Positions 23,437 through 30,928 of a stretch of DNA of 64,000 nucleotides are shown here, piece after piece. Position numbers and translations under genes: made by a program. The stretch lies in NCBI GenBank assembly GCA_037190965.1, contig JBBCKI010000048.1, positions 32,001-96,000 on the forward strand, written 5' to 3'. The stretch's first letter is position 1; every line of letters begins with the position of its first letter. This stretch comes from Chthoniobacteraceae bacterium. Its GTDB lineage: Bacteria; Verrucomicrobiota; Verrucomicrobiia; Chthoniobacterales; Chthoniobacteraceae. The notes below the pieces were generated by a model. The model was not told where the DNA came from. It made no database searches and saw only the letters and a list, made by a program, of their open reading frames with translations.

Positions 23437-24177
23437 CGTCCCCCAAATCGATTGCGTTTCCGTCACGCATCCGATCGGGCGAAGCTCTGGCCCTTTCCTT
23501 GGTGCTCGCCATCTCTACTGGATTTTCAAGGGATGTTCGCTTTCAGGACCTTCAGATTAGCAGGCCAACAGAATGGACTATTGCTTCACCTGAGCGTTCG
23601 AATGCGTAGGCAGCTCGGTCGCGGAAACACTGATGCTTCGCAGTGCAGATGGCACCATGTAGATTACTGCTCAAAAGTTACCCCAGCGAATTTTCAATCA
23701 GATAATGGAAGCAATGAAGAAGGAATTTGTCGAAATCGGCTTGGAAAGACGCAAAATGACAAGCTTACGGCATAGCTCGCTTTAATCAGTGGTTCCTTAG
23801 GCAATATTGCTGGCTACCCCTTCTCCATCTTTCAATTCCTCCGATTCCAATAACACTCCAGGGCTATTCAATTTCCAACATTACAGAGCTACTTCTCGCT
23901 TCTATTCACTTCAAAAACCGCGCGCAACTGCGTGGCAATCGCGAGGACGTTCCGCCAGCGCCCTCCCCTTTTGACCTTGACTATAGAGCGGGCAAAGTTG
24001 TGTAACGTACCCAGATTCATGGCGGAAGGAAGAAAGCCTCTTTCCACCAGGAAGGGAGCATCCCAAAAACGAAGGTTTGATAATAATATGAAAAGGAAGG
24101 CCAACAAAACGGATCGATGGAAACTACAGATGGGCGCGCAAGCAGTACGCCCCCCGCGAAGCACAAACTGGTTTAAG

Positions 24178-26151
24178 ATGCTTCCGACTATCATCTTAAA
24201 CATTGCCGCTGCTTCATCGGCAATGGCGTCTGCTTGGACAGGTGAAGGCACAAACAGCTATTTCGACAATCCCGTCAACTGGAGCAGCGGCGTCCTGCCT
24301 TCAAGCAATGGTGCTAGCGCGGTGTTTGATCGGCTCGCGAGTGTGGAATTCCGAGCATCCGGCGGAGCCTCCTCCCTTTTCATAGGCCAGTCCACGAGTT
24401 TTCTTCTCCAGGGGCGGACATTTTCGACCTCCTCTACCTATATTAATCAGAAAGCATTTTTTACCATAGATGGCGGAATGGCCTCTCTGGGTGACGTCAG
24501 CCTATCCGGCGGAATTACGGCAAAAGGCGCCGGAACGATCGTGTCCGCAGGTTCCATCCAAGGTGAAGGCTCCGGCGTAAGTATCTTGCAATTCAGCAAT
24601 GGCGCTATTTTAAGCGCCGATTCTGTTTCCGGCGTAAAGTCCATCCAGTTTCTCTCCGGTGCCGTGGGCGACGTGGGAGGCCTTGGGCTTATGCAGGGGC
24701 AATCCCTGGTGGTAAGCGGGGCAGGAACAAGCCTTGGCGTTTCTTCTCTCTCCAACAATGGAGGCCAAGTTTCGCTTAGCGCCGGAGCGCAACTGAACTC
24801 GACTGGATACAACGCAATTGGAAACCTCTCGGTTTCCGGAGCTGGAAGCCAATTTATCGGCGAATGGTTGACCGATGCCAGATCGGTCTCCATTAGTGAT
24901 GGAGGCAGTCTTTCTGTCCTAGGTGTTGATTTCAGCTACGGTGGTCAACTTACTGTTTCCGGTCCGGGCAGCAGCCTTTCGAGCCGTCACCTTACCGGTT
25001 CGGTGGACATTAACATTTCCAATGGAGGCTCCATCACGGCAGTAGAAACTCAAAATCTGGGCAGCCTTTCGATTTCGGGTGGAAGTTCAAGCTACAAGAG
25101 TTCCAGTACAACCAGAATCAAGGATGTATTTTCCCTCCGTGATGGCGCCAGCATGTCGGTTCAGCAGTTAAATCTTTCGGGCGCCTCTTCCATCCAGAAT
25201 GCTGTTCTGATCGCCAATCAAATTGATAACTCAGGTGCCCTGGAGATCCGGGAAAGCAGCATCGCTCCTCGCGACAAGGGCGGCGCATTCACCAACTCCG
25301 GTTCCCTAACCGGAGATTTCGCCTCCGAATACCAGTTGAACAATTTCGGTCACGTATCCATCGAACGCGAGGATTCGATGGTGTTTCGAAGAGGCGGAAA
25401 CTATTCCATCGGCTATATCAACGTACGCGGTTCGATGGAGTTCCTTGAATATTTCACCAATGACGGCACGATTGTGCTTTCCGGGTCGCTCCGGGCCAAT
25501 GACTTGCTTACCAACCAGCGCACGATTGAAGTCAGCGGTACGGCCAGTATTGGGGGTGGAGATTTCTACAACAACACGTCGGGTTCGGTCGCCGTACTCG
25601 GGCAGTCCAGGGTGAATTTCCTGGATGACGTCGTGAACGATGGCACGATCGCAATCGCCCTTGATTCAACGGCCGTTTTCCATGGGAGTTATTCCGGCAA
25701 CGGTTCGATTACCGGTACGGGAACTTCGGTTTTGCTCGGCGATCTCCGCCCCGGCCATAGCCCCGGCAGTCAAACCTTCGAAGGCGATGTCGTTTTTGGA
25801 GATGATTTCAGCTACACCGTCGAAATTGGCGGGCTTACTCAGGGAAGCGAGTATGACGTCATCCACGTTGGCGGTCTTCTCACTCTGGATGGAACCCTCT
25901 CCATTTCGCTATTGAACGGCGTTTCCTTGAAACAAGGAGATACTTTCGAGATTCTAACCTTCGGAGCGATTGAGGGAGAGTTCGCCGCGTTTCAGGGCCT
26001 TACGTTTGAGGGCCTCTCTTTCGAAACCATCTGGGGCGCGAATAATTTGACGCTTATGGTGATTCCCGAGCCGAACGCGGCGACCCTGCTGCTCCCTGGC
26101 TTGGCTGGCGTCATCGCCTTCGGCTGGCGTCGTCGCTGGAAGCAATCTTAG
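24178..26151 (+). CDS. PEP-CTERM surface protein with T5SS/PEP-CTERM-associated beta repeats
   Basis: Signal-like MLPTIILNIAAASSAMASA-WTG, repeated VSGAGS units, PGHSPG, VIPEP + TM + RRR; start may be further upstream (24088/24130). Confidence 0.88.
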   Translation: MLPTIILNIAAASSAMASAWTGEGTNSYFDNPVNWSSGVLPSSNGASAVFDRLASVEFRASGGASSLFIGQSTSFLLQGRTFSTSSTYINQKAFFTIDGGMASLGDVSLSGGITAKGAGTIVSAGSIQGEGSGVSILQFSNGAILSADSVSGVKSIQFLSGAVGDVGGLGLMQGQSLVVSGAGTSLGVSSLSNNGGQVSLSAGAQLNSTGYNAIGNLSVSGAGSQFIGEWLTDARSVSISDGGSLSVLGVDFSYGGQLTVSGPGSSLSSRHLTGSVDINISNGGSITAVETQNLGSLSISGGSSSYKSSSTTRIKDVFSLRDGASMSVQQLNLSGASSIQNAVLIANQIDNSGALEIRESSIAPRDKGGAFTNSGSLTGDFASEYQLNNFGHVSIEREDSMVFRRGGNYSIGYINVRGSMEFLEYFTNDGTIVLSGSLRANDLLTNQRTIEVSGTASIGGGDFYNNTSGSVAVLGQSRVNFLDDVVNDGTIAIALDSTAVFHGSYSGNGSITGTGTSVLLGDLRPGHSPGSQTFEGDVVFGDDFSYTVEIGGLTQGSEYDVIHVGGLLTLDGTLSISLLNGVSLKQGDTFEILTFGAIEGEFAAFQGLTFEGLSFETIWGANNLTLMVIPEPNAATLLLPGLAGVIAFGWRRRWKQS

Positions 26152-26177
26152 GGCAGAATCGAGTTCGCACGCAAGCG

Positions 26178-26523
26178 GGGTAGACTCTTCGGGCGTCGAC
26201 CCGATTGAACACACGTCCGGGCAAAGCCGGTGTTCCGTTCCATGCTGGAACGGGAAGAATCGGCGGTTTCCGGTCTTTACTCCAAACGCTTGTACCGGTA
26301 ATGTTTGGGTGTTCGGCAATAGTCGAATCGGGGTGTAAGAGCCCCGCCAAAGCGGTTCGGTATTGACCGGAACAATGCCGTCTTCTCGTCCTCAAAAAGG
26401 TCGGGGAGACGGCGACGCATGTCCAGGCTGTGGCCTCGCGCCACGGCTAAAGGTCGTCGTGGCTGTCTTTGGCGGTCTCTTAACTCCCCGACCACCTTGA
26501 GAAATCAAGGTGGTCGCTTTGTT
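26178..26523 (+). ncRNA. Candidate large structured RNA / attenuated leader (unidentified family)
   Basis: At least 8 helices whose non-Watson-Crick pairs are mostly G-U on the + strand; four-way junction 26329-26490; terminator at the 3' end. Confidence 0.6.
26489..26523 (+). terminator. Intrinsic terminator closing the candidate RNA, upstream of the SLOG gene
   Basis: CGACCACCTTGA-GAAA-TCAAGGTGGTCG then CTTTGTT. Confidence 0.7.
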
Positions 26524-26544
26524 AACCGCCCAGACGGACCGACC

Positions 26545-27219
26545 ATGAATGACGATCCCTTTATTCCCACCTCCGAAACCGTGACAGTTGCGCAGGGCTG
26601 TCAGGAAGAGATGCCCCTTGAAGCATTGTTCAGGATTTCGACCTGCTACGCGGGTATTGGCTCCAGAAACACCCCGCGTCCAGTCCTGATCCTTATGGGC
26701 GAGATTGCCATGATGCTGGCCGACTACGGCTTGATTCTTCGGAGCGGAGGAGCCCCCGGAGCAGACACCGCCTTTGAAAATGGGTGCGATCGGAGGGGCA
26801 GAAAGAAGGAAATCTTCCTTCCGTGGAAAAGGTTCAATAATCACCCGTCCCCTTTCTTCGATCCTCCTGAAGACGCCCGGATACTCGCCTCCTTTTGCCA
26901 TCCAAACTGGACGGCTTGCGGATCTACCGCTCGTAAGCTTCACGCCAGAAATTGCCAACAGGTGGTTGGTCTTCATCTGAACGACCCGGTGGATTTCGTC
27001 CTCTTGTGGGCTCCCGAAGAGAGCGGCCGGGTTAAAGGAGGCACGGCCACCGCCGTGAACCTCGCCCGACGAATGAAGATTCCGACCTTCAATTTGTGGG
27101 ATGAATCCACCTATGAACGGTGGAAGGAAATGATAGCCACCCATCAGAGACGCCAGGAACTCCTCTGGCGCCGCATTCTTTCGTGGTTGGGAAATAGGGA
27201 AGGCGAGGACCATGACTGA
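26545..27219 (+). CDS. DprA-like / SLOG-superfamily protein (short, phage-type)
   Basis: YAGIGSRNTP, LRSGGAPGADTAFE, IFLPW, LHARN, GGTATAV, IPTFNL; start uncertain. Confidence 0.8.
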   Translation: MNDDPFIPTSETVTVAQGCQEEMPLEALFRISTCYAGIGSRNTPRPVLILMGEIAMMLADYGLILRSGGAPGADTAFENGCDRRGRKKEIFLPWKRFNNHPSPFFDPPEDARILASFCHPNWTACGSTARKLHARNCQQVVGLHLNDPVDFVLLWAPEESGRVKGGTATAVNLARRMKIPTFNLWDESTYERWKEMIATHQRRQELLWRRILSWLGNREGEDHD

Positions 27220-27461
27220 TCCCTCACTCAAGCAGCATGGATCATGTCCTTGATCTCCGTTTAAAATACTGGTGTCCGAGTCCTCATTTTTTGGCGAACA
27301 CCAAGAATCAGGCACCGGCAATTGAACCAAAAGGTACTGAGATCGCCGCAAGATCGGCAAGATTGCCTGAAAGGGAGATATTGAACTCCGAAGTTCACTC
27401 AATTGTTGAATGGACTCGACCCCTCTCCAATACTCTGGGAACCCATCTCGCCTAAGGCACA

Positions 27462-27779
27462 ATGAAAGAATCTGATTAGAAGATTTTCAGCCGGGAGCTT
27501 TATCCGTCCGCGCGCACCCGGTATTCGCAAAAGACGCTTGATGATCTGGCAGCGCTCTCTGCGAATAGCGAAAAGGATCCTCACGAAAGATATCTCGATA
27601 TTTCCGAGCTAATCCGAAAGAGAAATAAGGAAATCGCCCAGATATTCGCCAGTCTCTCACGTTCGAGTGCCTTTTTGGGGTTTCAAATTTACTCCCGAAA
27701 CCTGATCACCGAAAATCAGTTGATGAAACTATCCCCGGAAACCCGCGCCAGTCTGCATTCACAAATTGAGAAAAGGTGA
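27462..27779 (+). pseudogene. Conserved ~105-aa helical hypothetical protein with a premature stop
   Basis: MKESD*KIFSREL...HERYLDISELIRKRNKEIAQIF..SRSSA...SPETR; TAG at 27477 where I recall W in homologs (ESDWK). Confidence 0.65.
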
Positions 27780-27798
27780 GCCTTCGGCTGCAAGGAGT

Positions 27799-27961
27799 GC
27801 GGCGTCGCGGAGCTCCGCCCTCCGTTGGGGGGTGTTGCCACATCGGAAGAACCTCTCGCCCTGCGCGCGCTTGCCGCGCGGGAGAGGGAGGGCGGAGTTC
27901 CACGACGCCGCCTGTGGCCAAAGGCCCTTTACTTCTTCTTCTCAACCACTCGTGGTTGTGC
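27799..27961. repeat. Family C REP doublet, copy 1
   Basis: GCGGCGTCGCGGAGCTCCGCCCTCC...GGAGGGCGGAGTTCCACGACGCCGC plus a ~50-bp tail shared with 63897-64000. Confidence 0.85.
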
Positions 27962-27985
27962 CGCCTTTTCGAGGTTGAAAGGAAA

Positions 27986-30928
27986 TCAGTGAAGACCAAG
28001 CAGCGAAGCCAAGGCTGATATCGTCACCTGCCCTGCGACAGCACCCCCTGGCGTCAACTCCTCCCGGCCAAAAGACAGGCGGTAAGGATTAGCCGGTTTT
28101 CCTGCAAGGAATTCCTGACTTGCCTTGAAGGGATAAAGGGCCGTTGGCTTTTGGGCCGGGGTCCCCACCGAGGCCACCGCCTCCCAGATCATCTTGGGAT
28201 CACTCACTTCTCTCAACGCCGAAGCGGAGCGCCCCTTTGGATTCAGCTTGAAGAGATGTACCGCAATCGCATCCCGCTCTGCGGCTGGAAGGCGAACATG
28301 CGATGAGGCGCTGAGAAGACGCTTCCAGGCATTGAGATACTCGGGATCAAGCGCGACCGCCTTCCGATAGTGAGCCAGCGCTTCATCATAGCGCTTCTGC
28401 TCATCCCGCAGATAGCCAAGGAGGTAAAAGACCTGAGGCTTGTCCGGATTTTTCCGGCTCAAATCGGTAAAGATCGTTTCCGCGATCCCTTGCTGCTGCG
28501 TCCCTTCAAACGCCTGTTCGCAGCCAAAGCAATGACTCTCCACCCGTCCGAAGCTATCCGGCATCAATTCGTAAGCCCGCCGATAATGCTCTTCGGCTTC
28601 CTTCATCCTGCCGAGATTGAAAAGCTGCCGCGCAAGCCGCGATTGGATGCAATAGGCATCCGCAAAATGAGTCAGCGACTCCTGGTACATTTTTACCGCC
28701 CGGCTCAGCAACCCCGCCTCGTAGAACCGATCAGCCTTCTCCGAAAGCCGAATTGCCTTCACAACGTTACGGTATAAAGCCACGTCCTTTGTATCCCCCC
28801 GGGCTTCGAGAATATCCGCCAGGATAGCGTAAGCGCGCATCCGGTCGTTGGGGCCCTGCTCCCCGTCGGACGGATCAATCGCGATGGCCTTGCGGATCGT
28901 CGCCTCCGCTTCCGGTAGCCGCTTGGCATCCAATAGGAGTTTCGCCTTCCAGATCAACGGCCGTTCCTCAAAGGGATCCGCCGCAAAAAGGGCATCCAGC
29001 TTCGCCTCGGCTTCCGGTCCAGCCAGTTCCAATAGAAGTTCATAGCCACGATCGAAGCCAGGTCGATCCGTCAACGTCGCTTCGATAATGGGACGAGCCG
29101 CTGCCGCCTGACCGGTCTTGGCCAAAGCCGCTGCAACCAGGTACCCGACAGGAAAGTCTTCCTTCGCCGAACCCAAAGCATCCGTCTGCCTGGAATAAAT
29201 TGCAGCCAGATCCGCAACACCCCAATCGGGAGATTGATCCATGAGCGCAAGCACATCGCGATAGTTGCCGGATTGGTGATACAACGCCGCGAGACTTAGA
29301 AGTGCATCCTGACATCCATCGGGCGATGCATAGCCTCCGGAAGCGGCAGCTTTGTTCTGCTTGACCTTGCTCAGCAAATAGTCCGCCAGGACTTTCTCGG
29401 CAGCACCGTTTTTGCCTGCCGCAAAAAGAATTCCGGCAATCTGCTGATCGTTTTGGTCAGCGCTGCTGTCGAAAGCCGTCTTCTCGGCAGCACCGTCGGC
29501 ACGCAAAATTGCCAGCCCCTCCTCCACCAACGCAGGCTTCTGCAAGACTAACCCGAGTTGAGCTAAACGAAGCGCTAACTCAGAACGCTTTTTACTAGCC
29601 TCCGATGGGCTTCCCGTCCCTTTTTCACCGGCCACCAAAGCCTTTCGGATCACCGCCAATCCTTCCTCCACCTGATCGGCGGCAAGCAGGGCATCGATCA
29701 GAGCCTCATCCAACTCATTTCGCCTTTCCGGGGACAAAGTCTTCACGGCCACCCCCGCCCGGACTCGTTCCAACATCTTATCCGTCGCTCCGACCTTGGC
29801 AGAAAGCCCGATATAGAAACTCCAGAAAGGAAGATCCGGATTTTTGGAAAGGAGCTTATCAAGAAAATCGAAGGCCTGCTCGCCCCGCCCCGCCTTTACC
29901 AGGGCTGCAAGGGAAGGCCCCGCAATACCGCCCTCCGAGGGAAACTTTTCCGCAACGGCAAGCGCCTTTTCTGTTTCGCCCCGCGCAATCAAACCTACTA
30001 GATAGTAAACCCTCGCCTCTCTTGCATCATAGTCCTGTTGACTGGAAATATCGGCGGGAAAGCGGCGCTCCAACGCCTCATAAAGCTCTCCGGCATCGAG
30101 GGAGGCCGCCAGCGCCCATTGAGGACTTTTCAAAGCATCCACCCGCTCCAATGCGATTTTCCGGGCTAGTTCCAGCGTCTTATCCCCCTCCGAAACGGAA
30201 AGTTTGACGTTCTCAGCCGTCAATGCCGTTCGGAGAACTTCTGCCGCGCGCTCTTCCCCCAGGATCGTGGCCAGATCCGGAACGGCAAAATCCATGGGAT
30301 AAGACATCTTGTTCTTCTGGAGCCACTTCAGCTGCTCTTGAAGACTATTGAGAATTTGATTTGGATCATCCGATCTGTCGATCAGCGCCTGTCTCAAGAG
30401 ATAAAGAAGTTGGGCGGATTGCCCTCCGTAACGAGGATCTTCCGTCTCGCCCGCAGCCTCCAAAGCCGAGAATTCCTTCTCAAACGCGGCGCGGTCGGAC
30501 GTCAAGCTTGCCACGAGCATCCGAAGACCGATCTCGCGAACCGTCGCTTTCGCCTTCGCCGTAGGCCGCGCCAGGACTTCCTTTTTCAGAACATCCCAAG
30601 CTGCGGGCGGCGGAAGAGCGGCGATCAGCAATCTCCCTTCCGGCACATATCCAAACTGTTCTGTCAAAGACGCATGGGCATCGAAGAGACTCAGCCATTC
30701 CTTGACGGCCGCTTCCACAGGGAGACCAGCCCCCTTCTTCTGCAAATCGCCCACCCGCCTCTTCCACAATTCGCGGGCGTCGGGTGGAAGAGCATCGCCG
30801 CCTTCAGCGGCAACCCGTTTCAAAATCGCCTCCGCTCCTTGGTAATGATCTGCCGCTCTCAATGGACAGAGCGACAACAACGTGACAGCGACAAGATAGG
30901 GGGAAAATCGCGCGGCAACCGTGACCAT
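27986..30928 (-). CDS. Exported tetratricopeptide-repeat protein
   Basis: Signal peptide, multiple TPRs, C-terminal YCIQ...HCFGCE. Confidence 0.82.
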   Translation of the reverse strand: MVTVAARFSPYLVAVTLLSLCPLRAADHYQGAEAILKRVAAEGGDALPPDARELWKRRVGDLQKKGAGLPVEAAVKEWLSLFDAHASLTEQFGYVPEGRLLIAALPPPAAWDVLKKEVLARPTAKAKATVREIGLRMLVASLTSDRAAFEKEFSALEAAGETEDPRYGGQSAQLLYLLRQALIDRSDDPNQILNSLQEQLKWLQKNKMSYPMDFAVPDLATILGEERAAEVLRTALTAENVKLSVSEGDKTLELARKIALERVDALKSPQWALAASLDAGELYEALERRFPADISSQQDYDAREARVYYLVGLIARGETEKALAVAEKFPSEGGIAGPSLAALVKAGRGEQAFDFLDKLLSKNPDLPFWSFYIGLSAKVGATDKMLERVRAGVAVKTLSPERRNELDEALIDALLAADQVEEGLAVIRKALVAGEKGTGSPSEASKKRSELALRLAQLGLVLQKPALVEEGLAILRADGAAEKTAFDSSADQNDQQIAGILFAAGKNGAAEKVLADYLLSKVKQNKAAASGGYASPDGCQDALLSLAALYHQSGNYRDVLALMDQSPDWGVADLAAIYSRQTDALGSAKEDFPVGYLVAAALAKTGQAAAARPIIEATLTDRPGFDRGYELLLELAGPEAEAKLDALFAADPFEERPLIWKAKLLLDAKRLPEAEATIRKAIAIDPSDGEQGPNDRMRAYAILADILEARGDTKDVALYRNVVKAIRLSEKADRFYEAGLLSRAVKMYQESLTHFADAYCIQSRLARQLFNLGRMKEAEEHYRRAYELMPDSFGRVESHCFGCEQAFEGTQQQGIAETIFTDLSRKNPDKPQVFYLLGYLRDEQKRYDEALAHYRKAVALDPEYLNAWKRLLSASSHVRLPAAERDAIAVHLFKLNPKGRSASALREVSDPKMIWEAVASVGTPAQKPTALYPFKASQEFLAGKPANPYRLSFGREELTPGGAVAGQVTISALASLLGLH

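Follow-up and report, generated by a model that had tools for sequence, protein, structure and literature searches.

An unannotated leader RNA, probably of the C4/sRNA-Xcc1 type, upstream of a DprA-like gene in Verrucomicrobiota

The locus and the extent of the RNA

The window analysed here is a stretch of 64,000 nucleotides from a Chthoniobacteraceae bacterium. In it, a gene for a PEP-CTERM surface protein (23932..26151, + strand; PF07589 above cut-off) is followed by a gene for a 224-aa DprA-like/SLOG protein (26545..27219, + strand, with a second possible start at 26611), and the gap between the two is the site of the RNA discussed below. The SLOG protein, which we treat as the cargo of the RNA, matches phrog_768 (E 2e-62) and had no match in Pfam, NCBIfam or PDB; no phage genes were seen around the locus. 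The PEP-CTERM gene, the RNA and the SLOG gene share a patch of low GC content (23500-27800; 0.528 vs 0.59 for the genome). On the 3' side of the SLOG gene, a 105-codon frame (27462-27779, + strand) is interrupted by one in-frame stop, at codon 6, and is probably a broken small gene; it borders a REP-like palindromic repeat (27770-27990), of which many copies, 72-88% identical, are scattered across many contigs, one of them adjoining the third copy of the RNA in this genome (L137).

An earlier note on this DNA had proposed that nearly the whole gap specifies a two-domain structured RNA of about 330 nt. Each helix that it listed is indeed where it had been placed, and the 346-nt stretch 26178-26523 (-167.2 kcal/mol) folds far better than shuffled controls, as expected there (z -7.75 on the + strand and -6.23 on the - strand). 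The signal is strongest in 26311-26524 (z -9.2 on the + strand vs -6.7 on the - strand). The first of the two proposed domains gave z -2.7 (+) and -2.8 (-), values of -2.7 or lower being reached by 2 of 40 random 131-nt windows of the genome, and 26178-26310 gave -1.5 (+) and -2.6 (-), so that neither of these segments shows any preference for the + strand. We found no homologue of the first domain in the organism's own genome or among the collected loci, the best foreign match being 30 nt at 87% identity, and its outer helices make use of strands (26309-26326) that the homologues devote to a first hairpin, which is separate and co-varies; for these two reasons the 330-nt two-domain RNA was not confirmed. 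Conservation across homologues begins at the hairpin starting at 26311, which is also where the match of the window to a contig from an independent soil run ends (these are DNA contigs with loose ends). The conserved folded RNA is therefore confined to 26311-26496 (about 186-190 nt) plus a terminator, and most of the supposed first domain (26178..26275), which is non-conserved and contains a strong local hairpin at 26226-26264, probably lies outside it.

Within the supposed first domain there is a predicted sigma-70-type promoter on the + strand (26276..26304), with a -35 element TTTACT (26276-26281), a spacer of 17 nt and a -10 element TAATGT (26299-26304). This site was too weak to be picked up in a consensus promoter scan, which found none in the window, and it is by position that it is probably the promoter: 42 homologues have a promoter-like pattern at a fixed distance 5' of the first hairpin, with the two T residues at -35/-34 in 35/42 and 38/42 and a T at -7 in 34/42. 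The hexamer TAGACT at 26181, previously suggested as a -10 element, is present in the sequence, but going by the homologues the promoter would lie some 120 nt downstream of it.

From the first hairpin onwards, all the elements are on the + strand. The first leader hairpin (26311..26328; helix 1 of the alignment A2 described below, with double changes at 6/7 pairs) is the probable 5' end of a precursor. It is followed by two short sites, which we call a1 (about 26336-26341, in the loop of a small hairpin at 26329-26346) and b1 (26344-26352) and which together make up the 5' strand (26329..26352) of the long stem designated P1 in the earlier note; then by a spacer hairpin, the former P2 (26358..26380; helix 2, 98.2% of cells paired, two pairs with double changes); and then by a three-way-junction RNA resembling C4 and sRNA-Xcc1 (26399..26497; z -4.8 on the + strand). 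This last is closed by a stem (26399-26408/26484-26493) and has a first arm interrupted by a conserved, asymmetric 9x4 internal loop, a second hairpin whose loop region (26467-26475) we term b', a single-stranded segment a' in the junction (26477-26483) and an ACCN tail (which reads ACCA in 23 of the 44 homologues). The terminator that had been said to close the RNA was found: a hairpin of the intrinsic-terminator kind (26489-26516) with a T-rich tail (to 26523), whose 5' arm shares 5 nt with the closing stem's 3' strand, as it does in all nine of the close relatives scored. Last comes a candidate downstream target site (26521..26537), which ends 8 nt before the start codon of the SLOG gene and overlaps a weak ribosome-binding site.

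A selected, stranded RNA with two alternative folds

The alignment A2 contains 44 copies of the RNA, and its consensus has 45 pairs, with 98.2% of cells paired and changes on both sides at 16 of the 45. None of 500 shuffles reached as high a value, which was also far above slid controls, although because the sequences in A2 are related the shuffle result should not be taken as a probability. Among the cells that are not Watson-Crick, G-U pairs outnumber A-C pairs by 253 to 8, and this excess fixes the + strand as the RNA strand, just as had been argued from the G-U pairs of the window. The RNA is thus both selected and stranded.

The A2 consensus is a 98-nt three-way junction. The four-way junction put forward earlier does exist, as one of two alternative folds: its P1 is a second pairing, exclusive of the first, in which the leader is joined to the b' loop and the single-stranded a', while its P3 appears in the folds of close relatives and is absent from the copies that we call Luteolibacter-type. 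The closing stem of the three-way junction, which competes with the leader duplex, had been overlooked. It is nearly invariant in A2 (6/9 pairs unchanged, one double change), and in the b' hairpin 2/5 pairs have many double changes.

For the precursor, the leader-paired fold is the prevailing one at equilibrium (pair probability 0.96-0.98); 17.7 kcal/mol must be spent to impose the C4-like closing stem, which does not return when only the leader is blocked. In the free fold of a read-through transcript the a'/b' arm is paired with the downstream site. The long imperfect stem that closes the minimum-free-energy fold had also raised the idea of a divergent 6S RNA, which can be virtually dismissed: there is no RF00013 match at the locus, the genome has its own 6S RNA on another contig (C14; 48.8 bits, above cut-off), and the RNA described here is multi-copy and patchily distributed (see below).

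Distribution of homologues

The organism's genome has three copies of the RNA, namely that in the window and two paralogues (L002, 1629-1847; L137, 1634-1852). A core motif common to two copies was found in at least 119 stretches of genome contigs, mostly from Verrucomicrobiota and Alphaproteobacteria, and in 22 stretches of viral contigs, of which two or three are chance matches; the expectation that homologues with covariation would exist was thus borne out. A sequence-only HMM built from 42 foreign copies, with the own-genome copies left out, recovered the window copy (E 1e-26) and both paralogues (8e-19 and 2e-16), the next match being at 0.21. The spread is patchy, since the model R1 was positive in 2 of 150 other genomes of the class (16 candidates scored per genome), giving 3/151 when the present genome is included (again with few candidates scored in each), and there has been local amplification, with 23 model matches in a single Luteolibacter MAG.

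Other searches gave little. A BLAST-type search of 401 genomes of the phylum returned, outside G000, only short matches at chance level; no match to the RNA was found in the phage records searched, a plasmid search gave three weak matches, a metagenome pattern scan gave none, and a degenerate sRNA-Xcc1 pattern matched five stretches. The closest named relatives of the window RNA are Chthoniobacteraceae records (L235-L242), one of which (L237) has a second, partial copy of the RNA in tandem.

Relationship to C4 and sRNA-Xcc1

In Rfam, the only similarity detected at the locus was a sub-threshold one to sRNA-Xcc1 (RF02221; 26400-26500), the family that scores highest in Rfam for each of the three own copies, with 26.6 bits for the window copy and 36.1 and 31.1 bits for the other two, all below the cut-off of 53. 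C4 antisense RNA (RF01695; gathering threshold 45 bits) had no match at E<=1 in the genome, and neither c4-a1b1 (RF03163) nor c4-2 (RF02944; described in PMC5737381) matched at the locus. The c4-2 model matched nowhere, so its search had no positive control; on phage P1, RF01695 and RF03163 scored 68.8 and 51 bits. As the model R1 in turn does not match the P1 c4 region, the link to C4 proper is an architectural one.

The architecture nevertheless agrees closely. Folded alongside the annotated P1 C4, the excised unit has the identical topology, b' occupying a hairpin loop and a' lying unpaired in the junction, and upstream a1/b1 sites are complementary to a'/b' and co-vary with them. Among the closest known systems are the immI regions of phages P1 and P7, composed of c4-a1b1 and C4 antisense RNA (clan CL00128), with which P4 seqA/CI and Gifsy-1 IsrK are grouped. 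In P1 immI, c4 has a1/b1 on its upstream side and a2/b2 on its downstream side (according to the annotation, and to the portions consulted of PMC5320573 and PMC12197685). Promoter, hairpin, a1, b1, spacer hairpin, antisense RNA, downstream site (a candidate one in the window) and start codon come in the same order as here, and a variable specificity code is likewise present in both. Differences from P1/P7 are that the window RNA has no sequence-level match to them, that its first arm is longer and has an internal loop, that an intrinsic terminator stands between the RNA and the gene, and that the cargo is a phrog_768 DprA-like SLOG gene rather than icd-ant, the locus thus having no antirepressor operon of a temperate phage as target. 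The 5' GG start and the ACCA tail are at most compatible with release by RNase P.

With sRNA-Xcc1, described as an 88-nt RNA detected by Northern blotting (in the part of PMC2996969 consulted), the RNA shares a three-stem fold around a three-way junction, a first arm that contains an asymmetric internal loop, a length of 88-98 nt and homology to true members: R1 matched two of 24 over-cut-off RF02221 loci, collected from 151 genomes, at E 4e-9 and 4e-5. When the 15 of these 24 that could be parsed (nine could not) were examined for C4-like sites, their upstream regions were found to carry an a1b1 code of the same kind (a' in 14/15 vs 2% of non-cognate comparisons, b' in 10/15 vs 5%), and downstream b' scored in 10/15 vs 12% non-cognate and a' in 6/15 (non-cognate range 2-12%). 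Like the window RNA, sRNA-Xcc1 is mobile, multi-copy and found 5' of accessory genes (the symE cassette, in the portion consulted of 10.1101/2025.06.18.660453). The window RNA differs in scoring below 53 bits, in the sequence of its internal loop, in the terminator that overlaps its 3' strand and in its verrucomicrobial hosts.

A third comparison is with the C4-like Group 1 sRNAs of Acinetobacter baumannii, which, as far as the part of PMC5320573 consulted goes, have many chromosomal copies and a variable a', are expressed, and seem to arise from a longer precursor through processing at a GG 5' end. Those RNAs match RF01695, whereas the window RNA belongs to a separate subfamily whose copies are fixed in front of genes for secreted proteins, methyltransferases, ECF sigma factors and small proteins.

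The RNA therefore probably operates in the manner of C4 and is related to sRNA-Xcc1, but its scores place it in neither of the two Rfam families. We hold its assignment to the C4/sRNA-Xcc1 kind with high confidence. The earlier claim of a new non-coding RNA stands in so far as the RNA falls below every Rfam cut-off, but this kinship means that it is not categorically new. The portions of the literature that we covered (PMC2864571, PMC5737381, PMC5320573, PMC12189769, PMC2996969, PMC4825925, PMC11701678, PMC12197685, PMC3632133, 10.1101/2020.03.17.996009 and 10.1101/2025.06.18.660453) contain neither a statement that sRNA-Xcc1 is C4-like nor a description of the verrucomicrobial subfamily; a connection of the one or the other with C4 may already be on record in Chen et al. 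(2011) or in the supplement of PMC5737381.

A private code shared by leader and RNA

The variable letters of a' and b' change from copy to copy, and the leader of the same copy carries letters to match. Watson-Crick runs of at least 6 between a' and the cognate leader were found in 36/46 copies, vs 7.1% of 1904 non-cognate combinations, and for b' in 31/46, vs 3.1% of 2032. The two own paralogues could not be parsed for this count; in a separate test both pair with their own leaders at p<0.01. They have a common a' and different b' segments, with b1 changed to match. In a set of 18 loci, 11 lacked the exact motif and so could not be parsed, and the codes were distinct in all seven copies that could. 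At L114/L192, L040 and L070 the leader bears the code of another copy, which could mean that copies have recombined or that the assembly is wrong across repeats.

This code bears on the possibility that the element is a trans-acting sRNA gene with host or phage targets elsewhere, standing alone and only incidentally next to the SLOG gene. Such a role has been proposed for sRNA-Xcc1 and for the Acinetobacter C4-like sRNAs (in the parts consulted of PMC12189769 and PMC5320573), and it would suit the RNA's own predicted promoter and terminator and the existence of copies with no clear ORF behind them. Yet the variable letters co-vary with the RNA's own leader and not with a shared target, and in close relatives the start codon lies at a conserved distance of 89-104 nt behind the RNA, so we regard this explanation as improbable.

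Complementarity on the downstream side is lineage-dependent. In the window, the duplex of the a'/b' arm with 26521-26537 has an energy of -20.0 kcal/mol, equalled by 2.2% of 2000 random windows (p 0.008 against shuffles). The close-relative set has 11 copies, two of which have no downstream start codon in the sequence, and the site reached p<=0.05 in four of the nine scored, five of the nine being from one genome. Among Luteolibacter-type copies it was significant in 1/40, and 34/40 have an SD-like motif within a local hairpin. By strict Watson-Crick runs of 6, no downstream site was found in 45 copies. Several viral homologues that share the internal-loop motif have, by eye, both upstream and downstream complementary sites. 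Two other candidates were set aside: a possible a2 inside the terminator (26497-26502), in place of which close relatives keep a site just past the terminator, and a complementarity between the spacer-hairpin loop and 26266-26275, dropped because it lies upstream of the probable promoter.

The cargo genes

According to the earlier note, the RNA and the SLOG protein might form an RNA-plus-effector module, a reading for which their adjacency and the overall fold score could be cited. Other loci do not bear this out. Among 214 further loci with the RNA, of which 39 are short, none encodes a SLOG relative, in a search that found all 11 positive controls, and neither the RNA nor any C4-clan RNA was found at 10 other SLOG loci, made up of two own paralogues and eight of the 29 plasmid matches. 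Both own paralogues of the RNA precede the same unrelated 73-aa ORF, which has no family match. Taken with the lack of conservation of the first domain, these observations make a new ~330-nt RNA with a SLOG partner very improbable.

The SLOG protein used as a query gave no match at E<=1e-10 in 300 other genomes of the phylum, and none of 18 stretches was confirmed when it was used to look for related loci. Within its own genome there are two further DprA-like SLOG paralogues (L143 and L144; 63% and 52% identical), the second with an internal stop.

The genes behind the homologues are varied (54 of 72 ORFs were scanned), including methyltransferases, ECF sigma factors, TraM, secreted proteins and GYF_2 mini-proteins; the viral homologues precede Rha (two cases) or Bro-N (one) among 12 ORFs scanned. 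Some kinds of cargo recur: a TraM repressor in Rhizobium/Agrobacterium (L082, L084), ECF sigma factors in sphingomonads (L037, L042, L065, L071, L073, L075, L086) and N6/N4 methyltransferases in Verrucomicrobiota (L016, L050, L052, L067). The commonest Luteolibacter-type cargo is a proline-rich secreted family of about 270-305 aa with no Pfam match (L035, L038, L044, L048, L054, L063, L066, L072, L077, L085), and among the closest relatives of the window RNA four cargo ORFs, all belonging to one complete MAG, were scanned and each is a GYF_2-like mini-protein. Since the RNA precedes so many unrelated accessory genes, it does not serve the SLOG protein as a dedicated partner, and is independent of that cargo.

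A proposed attenuator and antisense repressor

We therefore read the element, with a probability of about 0.7, as a leader cassette that is portable and of the same kind as phage C4/CI and sRNA-Xcc1, in the order promoter, first hairpin, a1b1, spacer hairpin, C4-like RNA, terminator, downstream site and cargo gene. It probably represents an unannotated subfamily of C4/sRNA-Xcc1-type leaders, acting as a putative attenuator and antisense repressor of the gene behind it. Transcription would start near 26311 and mostly stop at the terminator (26489-26523). By analogy with P1 C4, RNase P would cut an RNA of about 98 nt from the precursor, which would accumulate, and the a'/b' arm of this RNA, or the same arm in cis, would pair with 26521-26537 on read-through transcripts and block translation of the SLOG gene. 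The upstream a1b1 copy would compete for the arm and so set the switch. With the arm paired over the ribosome-binding region, the cargo would be kept low, and cross-talk would occur only between copies with the same code. For this particular sequence of termination, RNA release, antisense block and competition by a1b1 we would put the odds at slightly better than even.

Given the dominance of the leader duplex in the intact precursor, the mechanism must depend on kinetics or processing, unless the switch works in cis only. The latter possibility amounts to a rival with the same ancestry: the RNA would never be processed and its C4-like fold would be vestigial, the a'/b' arm toggling co-transcriptionally between the upstream leader and either the downstream site or a Shine-Dalgarno hairpin. 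The equilibrium fold of the precursor, the joining of the arm to the downstream site in the read-through fold, and the Luteolibacter-type copies, which lack a2b2 and mostly have their SD-like motif in a local hairpin, all speak for it. We consider it unlikely, because the closing stem, the b' hairpin and the ACCN tail have been kept even though they are incompatible with the leader duplex, and because relatives occur as discrete RNAs of about 88 nt (in the parts consulted of PMC2996969 and PMC12189769).

Implications

The RNA of the window is real, its extent and partner having been misjudged at first, and it is one more instance of a leader RNA, not a new RNA-protein machine. On the reading preferred here, that of a C4-like leader cassette, an unannotated and widespread RNA subfamily gains a concrete and testable mechanism, and sRNA-Xcc1, which has been portrayed as a trans-acting, virulence-linked sRNA (in the sources as far as consulted), is shown to have the anatomy of a phage C4 immunity switch. 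If the copies are orthogonal coded switches for accessory genes, they would offer a general means by which genes acquired horizontally are tamed, as well as a natural set of orthogonal riboregulators.

As a tentative extension, with the odds clearly against it, we suggest that Verrucomicrobiota have domesticated a phage immunity RNA as an RNA address system, in which copies with private codes gate cargo genes individually. If this were so, secreted-protein, DNA-methyltransferase and defence-like cargo would be gated one by one (for example by a timer, a newly arrived gene firing until its own small RNA builds up), and the codes would be swapped through recombination between copies.
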